Assembly: GCA_964574335.1 (NCBI GenBank)
Contig: CAZNNH010000009.1
Span: forward strand, 11,634-75,633
From: an uncultured Acidobacteriota bacterium
Lineage (GTDB): Bacteria > Acidobacteriota > Vicinamibacteria > Fen-336
Reading direction: 5' to 3'
DNA: 64,000 bases
The stretch's first letter is position 1, and each line of letters opens with the position of its first letter. The notes under the pieces are model-generated. The model worked only from the letters and a program-made list of their open reading frames with translations. It ran no database searches and was not told the origin of the DNA. The translations under genes were made by a program, and so were the position numbers. This document shows positions 28,016 to 64,000 of the stretch, piece after piece.

Positions 28016-29338
28016 CTACTCCTGCAGCACGAAGGGGAGCGTGTACGGCCCGGCGGGCAGTCCGAGAGCCGAGAAGGTCGTCGGGCTGAGCTGCCATCCC
28101 GACCGGCTTCCCACGTTGGTGTTGCAGGTCGGGTTCTCGAGCGTCGCCGCAGCGAACGAGACCGACGTAGAGAGACCGGTGGTGACGGTGGTCGGGATCA
28201 TGAAGGCGCCGAGCCTGGCCGACCAGTAGGCCTGCTTGCCGCGGCTGAGGCTGCCGCCCCCGCTGCCGCCGTCGTTCTTGTAGGCGTCGCCGGTGCAGCC
28301 CACCCCCGACCAGAAGATCTGGGCGGGGTACGGGCTGTGGGCGGCGTCTTCGAAGGTGCTTTCCCAGGCCAGATCCACAAAGTAGCCGTTGCTGGTGATC
28401 ACCGTGAAGCCGTACGAGTCCGCCGAGACCAGCCTGCCTAAGAGGTTCGGGGTGCCGGAGCTGTCGTAGACCGAGAGTCCGGCGGTACCGGCTGGACCTT
28501 GAGGTCCCTGAGCTCCCTGAGGTCCCTGTGGACCCTGAGGTCCGGTCGGTCCGGCAGGTCCCGTCGCCCCGGTCGCTCCGGTCGCCCCGGTGGGTCCGAT
28601 TGGCCCTTGGGGGCCAGTCGGTCCGGCAGGCCCGGCAGGCCCGGCGGGTCCGGCTGGTCCAGCGGGGCCGGTCGGTCCCTCCGGTCCGGTCGGTCCGGCG
28701 GGCCCCGAGCTGGCCAGGGCCACCTCGATCTGCATCTCGTGGGCCTTTGTGGTCTCCTTGCTTCCCAGGTTGGCCCGGATGCCCGACGGCGCGAGCAGGA
28801 GCCCGTTGTTGTCCAGTCCATCGACCCACTGGCGCACCGCGTCCGTGACGTCGACCGTCACGAAGTGGCCCTCCGAGCCAGACGGGATGGTGAGGTTGTA
28901 GGCCAGCGGAGCCCCGAGGGTGAGACTGGCCGCGGTCGTCGCGGTGAGCGTGTCTTCATCCCATGGGTCGGCGACCATGCTGAGGTCGATGGTTCCCGCG
29001 TCGAGGACGCTCACCACCCAGACTCGCAGGGTGGCCTTGTCGATGTCCGAGCCGGTGATCCCGCTCGGCAACGGAGAAAGATCGAACTTGACGTAGCCGT
29101 CCTGGTGCCTGGCAGCGAACCCGATGTCGTCCCTGATGCCGATTACTGCCGCGGCACCGTAGTTCACGTCGGGCTTGCTGGCCCTCGTGTAGGTGTCAGC
29201 GGCCACGTTCAGCGTGTCGGCGAAGGCCTTAGGCGACAGGATCGGAAGGGAGAGCAGGCAGACCGCCCCCAAGACCGGGACGAGGTCTCTCCTCCGAATG
29301 TAGGTCGTGCGGCCAGCACTCTCGATCGTTCGTTTCAC
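28016..29338 (-). CDS. Secreted DNRLRE-domain protein with collagen-like triple-helix (G-X-Y) repeat region and C-terminal globular domain
   Basis: Signal peptide; YVKFDL...ATLRVWV pattern of DNRLRE domain; ~25 consecutive GXY triplets ([23 protein letters not shown]...[19 protein letters not shown]). Confidence 0.8.
28490..28705. repeat. Nucleotide-level tandem 9-bp (GGN CCN NNN) repeats encoding the collagen-like GXY tract
   Basis: Visible as reiterated ggtccggcaggtcc / ggcccggcgggtcc units on + strand; generates multiple spurious + strand ORFs (28499..29476, 28528..28848, 28590..28901). Confidence 0.6.
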
Positions 29339-37028: not shown

Positions 37029-37320
37029 ATGATAGGCCACAAGGTGGGCGGCGGGCCAGCGGTGCCGCTATCATGTGGCGTGCCCTACGTCTACATCCTG
37101 CGCTGCGGCGACGGCTCCCTGTACACGGGGGCCACCAAGGACCTGGCCGCCCGCCTGCGCCAGCACCAGGCCGGGCGGGCCTCGCGCTACACCCGTGCCC
37201 ATCAGCCGGTGACCCTGGTCTGGTCGCGCCGGCTTCGTACCTGGAGCCAGTCGCTGCGCGAGGAGCACCGCATCAAGCGGCTGCGTCGCGCCGGCAAGGA
37301 GGCCCTGGTCGCGTCCGGAG
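37029..37320 (+). CDS. GIY-YIG nuclease family (UPF0213/YhbQ-like) domain; no stop codon before downstream TonB-dependent receptor (approximate 3' boundary)
   Basis: VPYVYILRCGDGSLYTGATKDLAARLRQHQAG...HRIKRLRRAGKEALV matches YhbQ-like GIY-YIG proteins (~95 aa), but the frame reads through into the receptor ORF ending 39569. Confidence 0.5.
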
Positions 37321-37370
37321 CGGACGGCGGCGTCGGTCGGCGCGCCCCAGCTCGGCGTGACGGGGCCGGG

Positions 37371-39569
37371 GTGCGGAGCGCGGTGCGAGGCCTGGCGGGC
37401 CTTCTGGTCGGTCTGCTGGTGGCCACGCCGGGACTGGCTTCGGTCCTCGAGGGCCGGGTCTCGTTCTCCGACGGTCGCGCCGTCGCCCGAGCCCGGGTGT
37501 CGATCCTCGGCCGGACCGGCAGCGTGCTCACGGACGAGCAGGGGCGCTTCTCCTGGTCACCGCTGCCGCAGCCTCCGTTCGAGATGATGGTGGCGCTGGC
37601 CGGCGGCGGCTACCTCAAGCCGGTCCGGATCGAGGCCTTGCCCGAGGGTCCCCCCCTCGAGATCGTCGTGGAGCCGACGATCGACGAGAACGTGACCGTC
37701 ACCGGGGGGCTCGCCCCGCACCTCCTACCTCCTCCCGCCGCCGGCACCAACTTGCTCACCGCGCGGGAGATCGGGGCGCGCGCGCCGGTGCACCTGACCC
37801 AGGCGCTCGAGAACGTGGCCGGCGTCGCCAGCATCTCGGAAGGCCAGGCCGCGGTCCCGGCGATCCGGGGTTTCGCCCACGGACGCACCCTGATCCTGCT
37901 CGACGGGACTCGGGTCACGGCCGAGCGCCGGGTGGGGCCGAGCGCGACCTTCCTCGACCCGGTGACCCTGGAGAGCGTCGAGGTGGCCCGCGGACCGGGG
38001 TCGGTCGCCTACGGCTCGGACGCCTTCGGTGGCGTGATCGATGCCCGCACCCGCCGTACCGCCCCGGGCTCCGGGACCGCCGGGCGCTTCGTGGGCGCCC
38101 TGGGTGCCGGGGTGCCTCAGGAGCGAGCGGCGATCGAGGTCGGGCACGGCTTCGCGAGCGGCGGCCTCATCTTCCAGGGCCACTATCGCAACCTCGACGA
38201 CTACACGAGCCCCGGGGGGGAGGTCCCCAACTCCGGCTCCCGCGACTTCGGGGGGCGGGCCCGCCTCGACCGTCGGATCGGCGCCGGGACCCTGAGCCTC
38301 GCCTGGCAGAGCGACCTGGGCCGGGACATCGAGCGGCCTCGCACCAACTCGACCACCACCCGCTTCTTCTATCCCAGCGAGGACTCGCACCGGCTGGTGG
38401 CGGACTGGAGGAGCGGCCCCGTCTCTGGCTTCAGCCAGCTCGGCGCCAGCGCCTTCCTGGGCAGCTACGCGATCGTCACCGACCAGGACCGCTTCGCGAC
38501 CGAGACCGCGCCACGCGGGGTGGAGCGGGCCGACGTCTCGGCCCGGGACTTTCACCTCCGCGGCTTCGCGGCCCGGACGGTGGGCCCGGCCCGCCTGGAG
38601 CTGGGCCTCGACGTGAACGGGCGCTTCGGCCTTCGGGCCCTCGACATCGACCGGGTCTACGACGCCGCCGGCACTCTCGCCGATGAGGAGGTCAGCGTCT
38701 CGATCGACGACGCCAGGCGCACCGACTACGCCGCCTTCTCCAGCGTCGAGGCGGCGGCCGGGAGTCGCGTTACCCTCCACGGCGGGCTGCGTCTGGACCA
38801 CGTGGTCACCCTCAACGTGGGGGGCTACTTCGGCGACCGATCGACTGGCCATGACGCGGCGTCGGGCTTCGCCGCGATCGCGGTTCTGCTGGCACGCGGG
38901 CTCTCGGCGACCGCCCAGGCTTCGAGCGGCTTCCGCGACCCGCTGCTCTCGGACCGCTACTACCGAGGGCCCACCGGCCGCGGCTTCATCACCGGCAACC
39001 CCGACCTCGATCCCGAGCGGAGCTGGCAGCTCGACCTGGCGCTGCGCTACGTCGCCGCCAGGTGGAGGGCGGCAGCCCACGCCTTCGACTACCGGGTCGA
39101 GGGCCTGATCGAGCGCTACGAGACGGAGCCCGACTACTTCTACTTCAGGAACCGGGGCCGGGCCCGAATGCGCGGCGTCGAGCTGGAGGTCCAGGTGGTG
39201 GCGCCGGGTGAGGTCTCCGTCGAGTTTTCCGGGCACCTGATCCGAGGCCACGCAGAGGAGGACGGTTCCCCCCTCGACGACGTTCCGCCGCCGACCCTGA
39301 CGCTCAGGCTGAGCCGCGACTTCGGGAGGGGCTTCGTGCTGGCGCGGGGGGCGCTCTACGCCGAAGACGATCGGCCGGGGCCCACCGAGCAGGCCCGGCC
39401 CGGCTACGGCCTGCTCGACCTGACCCTGGGTCTTCGTGTCGGCGAGCGGCTCGAGCTGCGTCTGCTCGGCCGCAACCTCCTCGACCACGCCTACCTGGTG
39501 AGCCCCGATCGGCGGGCGGTGCTGGCCCCCGGCCGCTCGCTGCTGGTGACGACGGTCCTGGCCTTCTGA
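37371..39569 (+). CDS. TonB-dependent receptor with CarboxypepD_reg-like N-terminal domain
   Basis: GTG 37371 gives signal peptide VRSAVRGLAGLLVGLLVATPGLASV, then LEGRVSFSDGRAVARARVSILGRTGSVLTDEQGRFSW (CarboxypepD_reg-like). Plug-like region ISEGQAAVPAIRGF...ILLDGTRV, beta-barrel. C-terminus ends ...SLLVTTVLAF with terminal F. Confidence 0.75.
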   Translation: MRSAVRGLAGLLVGLLVATPGLASVLEGRVSFSDGRAVARARVSILGRTGSVLTDEQGRFSWSPLPQPPFEMMVALAGGGYLKPVRIEALPEGPPLEIVVEPTIDENVTVTGGLAPHLLPPPAAGTNLLTAREIGARAPVHLTQALENVAGVASISEGQAAVPAIRGFAHGRTLILLDGTRVTAERRVGPSATFLDPVTLESVEVARGPGSVAYGSDAFGGVIDARTRRTAPGSGTAGRFVGALGAGVPQERAAIEVGHGFASGGLIFQGHYRNLDDYTSPGGEVPNSGSRDFGGRARLDRRIGAGTLSLAWQSDLGRDIERPRTNSTTTRFFYPSEDSHRLVADWRSGPVSGFSQLGASAFLGSYAIVTDQDRFATETAPRGVERADVSARDFHLRGFAARTVGPARLELGLDVNGRFGLRALDIDRVYDAAGTLADEEVSVSIDDARRTDYAAFSSVEAAAGSRVTLHGGLRLDHVVTLNVGGYFGDRSTGHDAASGFAAIAVLLARGLSATAQASSGFRDPLLSDRYYRGPTGRGFITGNPDLDPERSWQLDLALRYVAARWRAAAHAFDYRVEGLIERYETEPDYFYFRNRGRARMRGVELEVQVVAPGEVSVEFSGHLIRGHAEEDGSPLDDVPPPTLTLRLSRDFGRGFVLARGALYAEDDRPGPTEQARPGYGLLDLTLGLRVGERLELRLLGRNLLDHAYLVSPDRRAVLAPGRSLLVTTVLAF

Positions 39570-60320: not shown

Positions 60321-61502
60321 GTGGAGGGTATGGTGTTTGCCGTGACTACTAGCCGTCGGAGGGGAGGCGTGCTGCTTCTCTTCTTGCTGGCGCTCGCATT
60401 CGGGGGCATGGGCGATGCGAAGGCGGGCGAGGAGTACAAAGGACATCGCTGTCCTTTCGACCCACACGACATCCCAGCCACGGAAGTAGACAGGCGGATG
60501 GAAGCACCCATGTCACCGCTCGAGCGGGCAATCTGCGCGGCCTGGTGCCTGAAGGAGGTGGACGCGGCGAAGCGCGCTACGGGACTGCGGGCTTTGGTGC
60601 CAGAGCGGGGTCCCCTGGAGGCCGCCCTCCGAGACCTGGTGAGCGGCGACCGAGCATCCGAGTACGCGGCCCTTGAACCTAGTGAGCTGGAAGAAGAACT
60701 CGTCCGCCGGCTGTTGCCGCACCTGAGTTCCCACGATGCTGGCGTGAGGGCGGGGGCTGCGTCTCTCCTGGGGCTCCTGGGCTCACCGGATGCCGTCCCC
60801 GCTCTTGGTGGGCTCGTCTCGGATCGGGACGCGGATGTGCGAGTGGCTGTGGTAGGTGCTCTTCGGGAGATCCATGATCCCCGGACTTTGGGCCCCCTGG
60901 TTCGGGCGGCCCGTGGTTCAGACCCGTTTGTGGGAATATCAGCCGTCGCGGGAGTTGCTGAAGTCGGCGGGCGGGACGCCCGCGAGGCTCTCATTGAGAT
61001 TGTGGGCGACCGCAGGCTGGCCCGGAACGTGAGGCAGGCTGCGGCCGGACGGCTCCGTGCGACCAACGACCCGGCAGCACGGGCGGCGGCCGAGAGGTAT
61101 GTCGCAACGCTCCGTCCGCAGTGGCAGCGAGCGTTCTACTTTGCGGGTCTTCTGTATGTGATGGCCTTCTTCGCAAGCCGGCCCAACAGCGGGAAGGGAT
61201 GGCGGGTCGCGTACTACGCAGCCGTCGTGGGCTCAGTCATAGTGCTGGTGAACCCGGTATGGCTCATCGCTGGGGAAGAGACCGCGGTCTTCTGGGGCCT
61301 GGCTGTTCTGTACCCCCTCGGGCTTGGGCTTGGGGGGGTTCCGATCCTGTGGCTCCTGAAGCGGCTCGGGCACGTGGAGACCGCTCAGGCTATGGGGAAG
61401 CGCCTCTGCCGGAGCATCTTCGTCATCTGGGGGTCGCTGGCGGTCTGGGTTGTCGTCGTATTCCTGCTCATGCTCGTGGGCCTGGCCCTCGCTTGGCGAT
61501 GA
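60321..61502 (+). CDS. HEAT-repeat (PBS-lyase-like) protein with N-terminal signal/TM and C-terminal 4-TM membrane domain
   Basis: HEAT-like repeats (DAGVRAGAASLLGLLGSPDAVPALGGLVSDRDADVRVAVVGALREIHDPRTLGPLVRAA...); C-terminal hydrophobic helices; lower GC than surroundings. Confidence 0.55.
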   Translation: MEGMVFAVTTSRRRGGVLLLFLLALAFGGMGDAKAGEEYKGHRCPFDPHDIPATEVDRRMEAPMSPLERAICAAWCLKEVDAAKRATGLRALVPERGPLEAALRDLVSGDRASEYAALEPSELEEELVRRLLPHLSSHDAGVRAGAASLLGLLGSPDAVPALGGLVSDRDADVRVAVVGALREIHDPRTLGPLVRAARGSDPFVGISAVAGVAEVGGRDAREALIEIVGDRRLARNVRQAAAGRLRATNDPAARAAAERYVATLRPQWQRAFYFAGLLYVMAFFASRPNSGKGWRVAYYAAVVGSVIVLVNPVWLIAGEETAVFWGLAVLYPLGLGLGGVPILWLLKRLGHVETAQAMGKRLCRSIFVIWGSLAVWVVVVFLLMLVGLALAWR

Positions 61503-61535
61503 TGAAGGGGGTGGCCGGCAGTTGGTGAGACGGGC

Positions 61536-61572
61536 GCCGCCCTCAGGATGACACCCGGGCCTGACCCGGCGA
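61536..61572. repeat. Solitary copy of CCCTCAGGATGAC-core repeat (related to tandem array at 63308-63425)
   Basis: gccctcaggatgacacccgggcctgacccgg shares the 14-nt core ccctcag(a/g)atgac(a/g) with the three tandem units downstream of the HNH gene. Confidence 0.5.
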
Positions 61573-61859
61573 CGCCCAGGTGCTCAGGCTCCGCGACGGA
61601 CAACGGAGGCCCTCGGTGCAGAGCTCTTCTGTTCCCCGGAAGGATCTGCTCTCTTCACTTTCTTCAACTTTCCACTTGACAGGTTCTCGGAAACGGGTTC
61701 ATGGAGAAGACGGACGCCTACCAGAACGCCGCTCTCGCCGCGTGACGTGGCCGATGGAAGAGGCAGTGACGCGAGGGATCTCCGCGACGCACCCCAGGCG
61801 CGTAGCGCCCAACGCTCGGCCTCTCCGACGGTCGCGAAGGGGCCGCCTATATTCCAGGC

Positions 61860-63221
61860 ATGAGCATCACACCGACGACCACGCTCGAGGCGCTCGAGGA
61901 TGACGTGCTGCTGGAACGGGTCCGCGTTCTGGCGAAGGACTCGCGGCGCATCGAGGCCGATCTCATCGCCCACCTCGCCGAGGTCGACGTGCGTGGGCTC
62001 CTGGCACGGCACGCCGCGTCGTCGACGTTCGGCTACTGCCGGGAGACCCTGAACCTCTCCGAGTCCGAGGCCTATCTCCGAATCGCGGTGGCGCGGGCTT
62101 CGCGGCGGCACCCGATGCTGCTGGAGATGCTGGCCGACGGGCGGCTGCACCTCACCGGGGCCGGCAAGCTGGCGCCCCACCTGACGGTGGAGAATCGCGA
62201 CGGACTGCTCGCCCGCGCCACCCGCCAGTCGAAGCGCCGGATCGAGGAGCTGATCGCCGAGGTGTGCCCGCAGCCCGACGTCCCGGCACGGATCCGGAAG
62301 CTGCCCGTTCGCCAACTGCGTCCGGACGCAGTTGGCGGTCGGGCAGACGGTCCTGAAGGGTGCCGTCTTGCTGGCCCGACGCCGGAGGCGTTGGAGGACG
62401 CTGCTCGTCCAGCGACTGTGCCGGCGCAGGCATCACCGCCGTCCCCGCGGGGCGCAGTCGATGCGGCCGTCCCGTCGCCGCCCCTGGATGCCGCCCTTGC
62501 CGCGGTCGCTGCGGCGCAGGCGCCACCCGTCGCCCCGGCGCTGGTCCGACCGGCACCGACGGCGGCAGCGCGGATCTCGCCGCTGGCGCCGGCACGCTTC
62601 AAGGTCCAGTTCACGGCTTCGGGGGAGCTCCGCGACAAGCTCGAACGCCTGCGGGAGCTGATGCGCGCCAGCGTGCCAAGCGGGGACCTGGCGGCGGTGA
62701 TGGAGGCGGCGGTGACGGAGAAGCTGGAGCGGCTCGAGGCCCGGCGCTACGCGCAGACGAAGGCTCCCCGGAAGACGATGGCCGACACCGATACCTCGCC
62801 GAGCTCACGGAAGATCCCGGCAGCCGTCCGGCGGGCGGTGTACGAACGGGACGGGGGCCGCTGCACCTTCGTGGACGCGCAGGGCAAGCGCTGCACGGAA
62901 CGCCACCGACTGGAGTTCCACCACGCCGGCAAGGCCTGGGCGCGCGGCGGCGACCACAGCGTGAGGAACATTCGGCTGGCGTGTGTCCGCCATCACCAAC
63001 ACCTGGCCGACCTGGAGTTTGGTCGCGCATGGATGGATCGGTGCCGTCGATCGGACGCTGGCGTTCCGGAGCGCCATCGCCCGGTTGAGGCTGACCCGGC
63101 GGCGCCGCATCGTCAGTTTCCTCGGCGCGCATCGTGTGCCACGACATCCCGCAGGGAGGCATCTCGGGTGCGCAGCTATGCGGCGGCCTCTCGAAGAGCG
63201 CACGGCCAGTCGGCGATGTGA
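61860..63221 (+). CDS. DUF222 plus HNH endonuclease domain protein
   Basis: N-terminal DUF222-like region (LEDDVLLERVRVLAKDSRRIEADLIAHLAEVDVRGL...GYCRETLNLSESEAYLRIAVAR). C-terminal HNH motif IPAAVRRAVYERDGGRCTFVDAQGKRCTERHRLEFHHAGKAWARGGDHSVRNIRLACVRHH; Ala/Pro-rich linker; true stop may be effectively earlier (C-terminal 60 aa low complexity). Confidence 0.75.
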   Translation: MSITPTTTLEALEDDVLLERVRVLAKDSRRIEADLIAHLAEVDVRGLLARHAASSTFGYCRETLNLSESEAYLRIAVARASRRHPMLLEMLADGRLHLTGAGKLAPHLTVENRDGLLARATRQSKRRIEELIAEVCPQPDVPARIRKLPVRQLRPDAVGGRADGPEGCRLAGPTPEALEDAARPATVPAQASPPSPRGAVDAAVPSPPLDAALAAVAAAQAPPVAPALVRPAPTAAARISPLAPARFKVQFTASGELRDKLERLRELMRASVPSGDLAAVMEAAVTEKLERLEARRYAQTKAPRKTMADTDTSPSSRKIPAAVRRAVYERDGGRCTFVDAQGKRCTERHRLEFHHAGKAWARGGDHSVRNIRLACVRHHQHLADLEFGRAWMDRCRRSDAGVPERHRPVEADPAAPHRQFPRRASCATTSRREASRVRSYAAASRRAHGQSAM

Positions 63222-63307
63222 TCCTGAGTGCTTCTTCGACGCTGCGCCCCGGAAGGATCTCGGCCGCGTCGCCTGAGTCCCGGATTCTTCGGGCGCTCGC
63301 AGACCGG

Positions 63308-63425
63308 CTCCCTCAGAATGACGTGTCAGGCCTGAGGCCAGCGGCGCCCTCAGAATGACGCGTGTGGCCTGAGGCTCGCGGTGCCCTCAGGATGACGCTC
63401 TGGTCCGATCCGGCGCCGCGAAGGT
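63308..63425. repeat. Three tandem ~38-39-bp repeats, each with internal inverted repeat (CCTCAG...CTGAGG hairpin), REP/MITE-like
   Basis: Units tccctcagaatgacgtgtcaggcctgaggccagcggcg / ccctcagaatgacgcgtgtggcctgaggctcgcggtg / ccctcaggatgacgctctggtccgatccggcgccg; first two have perfect 6-7-bp stems. Confidence 0.65.
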
Positions 63426-63504
63426 CGGTTCCCCGACTGCGAACGGAGAGCGTCGCCGGCTGGTGTCTTGGGTGGCCGCTCACGGGGCACTTCCTTCTGG
63501 AAGG

Positions 63505-64000
63505 TCACCGAGCCAGGCGCTCGTAGAGGACGACCTTCAGGCTGGTCAGCGGGCTGAGCGAGTGGAACGATTGCTCCTCGACCTTTCGGTACGCGTCGAG
63601 GAACTGGTCAGGGAAGGTCCTGAATTGCTCGTGGTGCAGCACGACGAAGAGCCGCGGGTGGCCGGCGCTGGCCTTCTCGAGGCCGTCCCGGCTCGGCACC
63701 AGGCGTGTCCCCTTGGGCCCGCCCGGGACGTCCGGCAACGGAAAGATGACGGTCGGCGTCGAGAGCGGGTCGGCGCCGGCCTGGCGGAGGTAGTAGTCGT
63801 AGGCGTGGATGCCCCCTGCGGCATGGAACAGGATGGCGTCGCCCGGCCGGCTGTGGCCGACCACGAATCGTGTCGCCGACTCCCAGTCCCCATCCCAGTT
63901 GGCCATGGTCCGGTAGTAGCCTCCGTTGAGGACGACGTTGAAGCCGAGGGCCAGGACGGCCGCGGCGATGATCGCCCTCTTGACCCTGGGGGACGCGTGT
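63505..64000 (-). CDS. 3' portion of membrane protein gene (TM helix plus ~130-aa periplasmic-type C-terminal domain); 5' end beyond window
   Basis: Reading frame open to window edge (...RVKRAIIAAAVLALGFNVVLNGGYYRTMANWDG...); ends ...LKVVLYERLAR*; possibly C-terminal region of a large polytopic glycosyltransferase-like protein (speculative). Confidence 0.4.
   Translation of the reverse strand, partial: HASPRVKRAIIAAAVLALGFNVVLNGGYYRTMANWDGDWESATRFVVGHSRPGDAILFHAAGGIHAYDYYLRQAGADPLSTPTVIFPLPDVPGGPKGTRLVPSRDGLEKASAGHPRLFVVLHHEQFRTFPDQFLDAYRKVEEQSFHSLSPLTSLKVVLYERLAR
63515..63535. repeat. Right copy of 21-bp direct repeat (att-like) at 3' end of intact gene
   Basis: Exact match to 60159-60179. 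Confidence 0.7.

Follow-up and report, generated by a model that had tools for sequence, protein, structure and literature searches.

A probable orphan cluster of CGTC-tagged REP/Ssn-related-motif hairpins beside an HNH gene in an Acidobacteriota contig

The CGTC-tagged REPs were defined in 2013 by Di Nocera, De Gregorio, and Rocco, with families named CGTC-1 to CGTC-4 (PMC3733652). They consist of an unpaired CGTC, TGTC, or CCTC tag, an 8–9-bp stem that starts with A-T, a loop of 4–5 nt, and a CCA tail, and they include Neisseria dRS3 and Rickettsia RPE-4 and RPE-6 (PMC3733652). These repeats were found in 5 phyla, Acidobacteriota not among them, and occur mostly as head-to-head dimers with the tags outside; head-to-tail arrangements were described as “negligible” and clusters as “rare”, and the repeats “apparently lack a dedicated transposase” (PMC3733652).

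The second closely comparable system is that of the Ssn nucleases. Chenal et al. (2025) showed that the Neisseria Transformation Sequence (NTS) CGTCATTCCCGCGMAVGCGGGAATCYRG and the Ssn-related motifs (SRMs) flank genes for 94-aa single-domain GIY-YIG proteins (PMC11893778). In the same study, SsnA is reported to bind the NTS hairpin only as single-stranded DNA and only on one strand, to cut a few nucleotides upstream, to be inactive on double-stranded DNA and RNA, and not to bind RNA (PMC11893778). Cleavage is controlled by the 3 nt located 5′ of the palindrome and binding by the C just 3′ of it, and in N. meningitidis the Ssn system limits the integration of transforming DNA (PMC11893778).

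The repeats described here are located in the window, that is, the whole 64-kb stretch of an Acidobacteriota contig that was analysed, which has a GC content of ~70%. The original prediction read them as REP/MITE-like elements; this reading is correct, the units belonging to the CGTC-tagged REP/SRM superfamily, and the repeats probably constitute an orphan cluster of such hairpins. The 13-mer core CCCTCAGRATGAC occurs exactly in three tandem units (63310, 63347, and 63384) and in a solitary upstream copy (61540), all on the plus strand, and at no other position of the window. Because these 4 exact matches compare with 0.003 expected from base composition, the array and the upstream copy are real, as had been proposed. 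Tandem Repeats Finder (TRF) reported one array (63305–63398; 2.5 copies, 85% matches) with a period of 37, so that the tandem arrangement stands, but not the unit length of 38 bp given originally. The inverted repeat CCTCAG...CTGAGG, previously assigned to every unit, is present only in units 1 and 2, and unit 3 has a different tail. The solitary copy, likewise real, is not a plain unit of ~38 nt: ~90 nt (61526–61615) resemble 63370–63455. The pairing partner of the first 13-mer (GGATTCTTCGGGC, 63282–63294) lies just outside the region originally delimited, and a second complete hairpin in the opposite orientation (GTGATCCTGAGTGC...GCCCCGGAAGGATC, 63218–63259) overlaps the stop codon of the HNH gene. 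Copies of the hairpin family are present only on the two sides of this gene, with none in the remaining ~60 kb of the window. The features are as follows:

61526–61615, no strand assigned: half-site plus “tail” segment of ~90 nt, 75% identical to 63370–63455.
61540–61553, minus strand: solitary tag-proximal half-site, CCCTCAGGATGACA on the plus strand and TGTCATCCTGAGGG on the tag strand, with the exact 13-mer.
61637–61646, plus strand: tag-distal half-site CGGAAGGATC standing alone, immediately ahead of the conserved 5′ region of the HNH element.
61860–63221, plus strand: HNH-family ORF, context rather than part of the repeat system.
63218–63259, plus strand (tag strand): complete hairpin 1, GTGATCCTGA-GTGC...GCCCCG-GAAGGATC.
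63260–63282, no strand assigned: 23-nt spacer of the head-to-head dimer.
63283–63323, minus strand (tag strand): complete hairpin 2, the first array unit, GATTCTTC-GGGCGC...GGCTCCC-TCAGAATGACG.
63324–63360, minus strand: half-site unit 2, 37 nt, in which the inverted outer half is degenerate (GTCAGGCCTGAGG); it also includes a spacer and CCCTCAGAATGACG but no distal half of its own.
63361–63397, minus strand: half-site unit 3, 37 nt, ending in CCCTCAGGATGACG.
63398–63455, no strand assigned: “tail”, common to the upstream copy and to the related locus L203.

The window thus contains a head-to-head dimer (63218–63323) with its GTC tags pointing outward, followed by two tag-proximal halves that also point outward (63324–63397). 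In each hairpin of the family, the (C)GTC tag is unpaired and is followed by a 5-bp stem, A-YYYY/RRRR-T, and by a 2-nt mismatch that is conserved (GA facing GA on the tag strand and TC facing TC on the other one); the apical stem-loop is rich in GC and varies in length, and the C that follows the palindrome is invariant. The stems begin with A-T (ATTCT/AGAAT and ATCCT/AGGAT). In the window, the stem is composed of 5 bp, the 2×2 mismatch, and an apical stem of 3–6 bp with a 10–20-nt apical region; a short canonical form found elsewhere, GTCATTCTGAGCGAAGCGAAGAATC, has 9 stem positions when two G-A pairs are counted. On the tag strand, the tags read CGTCATTCTGAGGG at 63323–63310 and 63360–63347, CGTCATCCTGAGGG at 63397–63384, and TGTCATCCTGAGGG at 61553–61540. 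Hairpin 2 and every half-site carry both GTC and the 3′ C, and the tails following the two palindromes are CCG (hairpin 2) and CTC (hairpin 1), of which the first C is the invariant one.

Comparison of the individual copies with those of related loci revealed that (i) hairpin 1, found as a 2-mismatch match to CCCTCAGRATGAC on the minus strand, has a degenerate tag (GTG for GTC) that reads TGTGATCC, with its 3′ C at 63259, and the homologous copies in L203 and L204 read GTCATCCTGAG; (ii) in hairpin 2, GATTCTTCGGG at 63283 pairs with the first unit, and the predicted fold consists of 5 bp, a 2×2 internal loop, and an apical stem, the counterpart in L202 (97% identical) having a perfect GGGCGC/GCGCCC apical stem and a folding z of −2.9; (iii) the AGGAT of unit 3 no longer complements the ATTCT of the single distal half; (iv) no GATYCTTCGG is present within 70 nt upstream of the half-site at 61540 that could serve as its distal half; and (v) the segment 61526–61615 is 85% identical to the tail that follows the hairpin dimer in L203, which is arranged likewise at the distal half-site, where the tail ends in CCGGAAGGATC. 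In L203, the same dimer is present and its complete hairpin is directly followed by the tail, with neither of the two additional 37-nt units in between; it follows that the tandem expansion to units 2 and 3 is particular to the lineage of the window.

Folding of the single units, which had been suggested as a check, gave energies no better than those of shuffled sequences (z from −1.4 to +0.8), and the whole cluster was likewise not significantly below shuffles in its context of 70% GC. Thermodynamics was therefore not used, and the pairing rests on covariation across genomes. The Y of GATYCTTCGG and the R of CAGRATGAC were paired as T:A in 82 cases and as C:G in 79, with 0 other combinations. 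For generalised stems, 116 of 138 half-site pairs were perfectly complementary, compared with 24 on average, and 40 at most, when the partners were shuffled.

Other genomes, one per species, were scanned for two 13-mers 15–45 nt apart, and at least 119 motif loci were obtained from ~15 phyla, with locus GC contents ranging from 29% to 68%. The phyla among the matches listed are Planctomycetota, Bacillota, Chloroflexota, Acidobacteriota, Gemmatimonadota, Cyanobacteriota, Patescibacteria, Bacteroidota, Desulfobacterota, Nitrospinota, Omnitrophota, Synergistota, Armatimonadota, and Actinomycetota, together with Alphaproteobacteria. The anatomy common to these loci is GATYCTTCGG, a short GC-rich stem-loop, CCCTCAGRATGAC, and then copies of the right half only, with periods of 21–57 nt. 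The arrays are strongly polar: of 240 arrays with at least two units, 216 had a distal half belonging to the first unit, and 465 of 517 later units lacked one. The same polarity was found in loci that had not been selected for the motif (first unit with a distal half, 29/31; later units without one, 44/50). Tags-outward dimers, with 118 pairs, are the commonest adjacency elsewhere. Their spacers are bimodal, being either shorter than 60 nt and empty, which is the commonest arrangement, or 200–450 nt long and holding the GIY-YIG gene described below.

The two hairpins of a head-to-head dimer differ in their basal stems in 88 of the 118 cases (loci L001–L119 and L122–L201), as in the window, where ATCCT is combined with ATTCT. 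With stems that differ in this way, each hairpin would be more likely to fold on itself than to pair with the other; heterodimers of this kind were noted in 2013 without explanation (PMC3733652). In a Dehalococcoidia chromosome (OZ253489.1; L045, 3600–5500), several tandem copies of a ~550-nt higher-order repeat were observed, each with one complete hairpin, then up to 8 half-site units, plus related hairpins of the form GTCATTCCGAAC...GAGGAATC; the 8-kb stretch of this locus contains 21 half-sites. Complete hairpins (CTTCGG...CCCTCAGRATGAC) are also present in 41 stretches of IMG/VR viral contigs (L205–L245), in which a tblastn search found no Ssn-type gene.

All-against-all clustering of the ORFs within 2.5 kb of the arrays gave no family common to most loci. 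A RAYT-like family common to the array loci was not among the clusters, and the sole shared family was a small GIY-YIG ORF (Pfam PF01541) with one hairpin ~15 nt ahead of the start and a second immediately behind the stop. We therefore turned the selection around in a set of 80 metagenome loci picked only by similarity to the ~92-aa GIY-YIG protein, 77 of which could be evaluated on each side. A complete hairpin was located within 80 nt upstream of the gene in 46 of the 77 (60%), with the tag pointing away in 36 of these 46, and within 80 nt downstream in 53 (69%), with the tag pointing away in 44; hairpins on both sides with their tags outward were present in 27 of 77. The background count was 31 hairpins in 128.8 kb. 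The GIY-YIG partner is 44% identical (E = 7e-28) to an SsnA-type gene of N. gonorrhoeae situated amid NTS repeats, and a sequence search of the PDB with the protein gave no match. The layout of a gene between hairpins also exists in cultured Planktothrix and Spirosoma and, with uninterrupted stems, in Rhizobium, Azospirillum, Aeromonas, Novosphingobium, and Neisseria gonorrhoeae. The specific gene partner of the hairpin family is thus the ~92-aa GIY-YIG (Ssn-type) nuclease, not the HNH protein. On plasmid AZO_p3 of Azospirillum lipoferum 4B (L252, 255118–256190), an Ssn-type GIY-YIG gene lies between sufB and sufC, is flanked at both ends by complete head-to-head CGTC-REP dimers, and looks like an insertion into an operon.

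The window hairpins share with the CGTC-tagged REPs the unpaired CGTC tag, a stem that begins with A-T and then T-A, an intergenic location without a nearby transposase, and the head-to-head heterodimer with tags outside, here with a 23-nt spacer. By contrast, the uninterrupted 8–9-bp stem of those REPs is replaced in the window by 5 bp, a mismatch, and 3–6 bp with a 10–20-nt apical region, and the window has a head-to-tail array of half-sites. In comparison with the SRM/NTS system of Chenal et al. (PMC11893778), the window has the same GTC 5′ of a palindrome starting with AT, the same invariant C 3′ of it, and a directional hairpin; the subfamily repeats flank a ~92–94-aa single-domain GIY-YIG gene (SRM-gene-SRM) and are widely spread phylogenetically. 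The differences from that system are that the stem is interrupted by a conserved 2-nt mismatch, that its apical part is long and variable, and that the window lacks an ssn gene. Polar arrays of tag-proximal halves are a feature of the present subfamily and do not appear in the sections of that study drawn on here (PMC11893778). The SRM pattern HGTCWYN(0-2)YYVSBRHN(0-5)WNVSBRGN(0-2)RNCYNB matched neither window hairpin, because the 2-nt mismatch interrupts the stem, and had three unrelated matches elsewhere in the window. It matched the classical proteobacterial copies of L249, L251, L252, and L255, but, owing to the same interruption, not the mismatch-bearing copies of L099, L082, L248, and L250.

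Similarities to two further systems are more general. GTAG-tagged REPs, BIMEs, and REPINs with their RAYT proteins (TnpA-REP, HUH Y1) also combine tagged palindromes, inverted dimers, and a small gene flanked by its own repeats with recognition of single-stranded DNA hairpins, whereas the tag here is (C)GTC rather than GTAG and the protein has a GIY-YIG rather than an HUH tyrosine fold and chemistry. Imperfect single-stranded DNA hairpins with conserved mismatches, strand-specific recognition, and cleavage beside the hairpin are likewise features of IS200/IS605 elements; both ends of those elements are in the same orientation on one strand, whereas the hairpins here are inverted with their tags outward and are not accompanied by TnpA or TnpB.

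The HNH ORF (61860–63221) is conserved with its homologues over ~61653–63060, its last ~55 codons are not conserved, and its stop codon (63219–63221) lies inside hairpin 1. It had no match in Pfam, and residues 322–388 weakly matched the IscB model of NCBIfam. Its neighbours are a HEAT-repeat gene (60321–61502) and the gene ending at 63505; the loci retrieved included no orthologous HEAT-gene locus lacking the HNH gene. The family is large and multi-copy, with 2376 matches, often several per genome, some of them named Vicinamibacteria HNH proteins; no relatives were found in viral contigs. Its non-coding leader (window 61653–61859; also in L120, L121, L203, L204, L246, L256, and L257) is conserved, with a T-rich stretch ending in CTTGACA and with CCTATATT ~10 nt before the start codon, and the copies often adjoin tRNA genes (downstream in L121, upstream in L246). 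Inside the ORF, a 46-nt near-perfect palindrome (62301–62346; 23-nt arms, 91% complementary, no spacer) is kept in the homologues L202, L203, and L204, and a solo copy is located upstream of the L204 gene (L204 188–248). Judged by the leader and the adjoining tRNA genes, the HNH family has the look of a stand-alone mobile cassette that brings its own promoter. In the metagenome contig L202, positions 1–1511 are 97.4% identical to window 61812–63323 and end exactly at the first array unit, which looks like an assembly break at the repeat.

The original prediction had offered the repeats as the boundaries of an HNH cassette or as recognition or processing sites of the HNH nuclease, an explanation that we consider improbable. 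Among 8 independent HNH homologue loci, complete hairpins are nearby in 4 (the window, L203, L204, and L121), at variable distances and on either side of the gene: downstream in the window and L203, upstream in L204 and in L121, which has two. The other loci have a lone half-site (L246) or none (L120, L247, and L256/L257). The closest homologues, L203 (67% aa identity) and L204 (74% aa identity), do have the same dimer, with 74–83% DNA identity, and the only family copies in the window bracket the HNH gene; this co-occurrence at half of the loci deserves weight, yet it is loose and lacks the precise nesting of the GIY-YIG gene between hairpins. DNA similarity between HNH copies is confined to ~61653–63060 and stops before the hairpins, which therefore lie outside the shared element, and tblastn found no relative of the HNH protein in the 119 motif loci listed. 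In the preferred reading, the HNH gene is a separate multi-copy selfish element in the same intergenic region as the hairpins. Even less probable than hairpins belonging to the HNH element is an action of the array as RNA, either as a terminator, as also proposed originally, or as a 3′-end mRNA stabiliser between the convergent HNH gene and a minus-strand gene ending at 63505. The array does lie between two convergent 3′ ends, and roles in transcription termination or in mRNA stabilisation have been suggested for REPs as a class (PMC3733652), but no terminator-like or promoter-like site and no GC stem with a T-run was found in 61000–64000. In addition, 101 arrays had no strand preference relative to their flanking genes (38 (+,+), 40 (−,−), and 10 + 13 mixed pairs), and an orientation this random points to an element that acts as DNA and not to an RNA tied to one strand. 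Also against a role as RNA are the strictly Watson-Crick covariation (0 T:G among 161), the folding energies no better than shuffles, the inability of SsnA to bind RNA (PMC11893778), and the searches of Rfam, in which no family covered the hairpin (window region at E ≤ 10; 18 motif loci at gathering thresholds; 13 GIY-YIG loci at E ≤ 0.1). A self-cleaving ribozyme and a CRISPR-like array were considered separately and rejected, given the lack of an Rfam match, the periods of 21–57 nt, the lack of unique spacers, and the random strand.

Compatible with the family assignment is a third explanation, in which the cluster would be an inert relic: the repeat would first have decayed, would then have been duplicated by ordinary slippage, and would now lack both activity and a partner enzyme. 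We regard this as possible but doubtful. Signs of decay are the degenerate GTG tag at 63218, a G-to-T change that breaks the apical stem of 63283–63323 (relative to L202), and the mismatched unit 3; moreover, the 64-kb window has a single cluster and no Ssn-like gene. Against these stand the core 13-mer, which is perfect in all four copies, and the polar arrangement of the half-sites, which is that of active-looking arrays elsewhere.

The reading of the repeats as an orphan cluster of CGTC-tagged REP/SRM hairpins is accordingly preferred. What is established directly is how the hairpins are built, that their stems covary, that they occur across phyla, that they are linked to Ssn-type genes, and that the arrays are polar; the events at the window copy may be sketched by analogy with the Ssn system (PMC11893778). 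The tag strand would fold into the hairpin when the DNA is single-stranded, and a small single-domain GIY-YIG Ssn nuclease would bind this hairpin and cut a few nucleotides 5′ of the tag; for the window hairpins, the nuclease would be encoded elsewhere in the genome, if present at all. The half-site array may have arisen by tandem duplication on the cleavage (tag) side of the hairpin, in connection with cleavage. The window copy would thus be, or have been, an Ssn substrate, and the half-site with its tail on the other side of the HNH gene would be a decayed remainder.

A more tentative proposal, which we think rather unlikely, is that the polar arrays are footprints of repeated Ssn cleavage and repair and that the mismatch-bearing subfamily is a large cross-phylum Ssn/SRM clade beyond the published SRM consensus. 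If true, the footprints would offer a clue to the way in which CGTC-type REPs increase in number without a transposase, and the clade would span Acidobacteriota, Chloroflexota, Bacillota, Cyanobacteriota, Patescibacteria, and ~10 more phyla. A still weaker addition to this proposal is that the multi-copy HNH element of Vicinamibacteria-like genomes may preferentially settle beside, or travel with, SRM dimers. The repeat class itself (CGTC-tagged REP/SRM) is already known; new is the member of a mismatch-interrupted subfamily that the published SRM pattern does not detect. The window array, being an orphan and partly decayed, says nothing on how the HNH gene works. Of possible interest for the study of Ssn proteins and REPs are the subfamily in ~15 phyla that is invisible to the SRM pattern, the presence of its hairpins at 60–69% of independently selected Ssn-type gene loci, and its polar arrays on the cleavage side.

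Two minor observations concern other parts of the window. The only GIY-YIG domain in the window (37068–37340; Pfam E = 3.8e-15) is 25–30% identical to Ssn-type proteins, lacks the GFTxKYN and NPxWxDL motifs, and has no adjoining hairpins. It is in frame, with no stop between, with a TonB-dependent receptor composed of CarboxypepD_reg, Plug, and β-barrel domains (ORF 37029–39569, plus strand), which represents an unusual fusion unless the boundary between two genes was missed. In addition, at 28500–28715, GGTCCGGTC and its variants are repeated in tandem over a long stretch with a period of 9 nt (periods of 18, 36, and 54 were scored as well), much as in a minus-strand sequence coding for collagen-like Gly-X-Y repeats.
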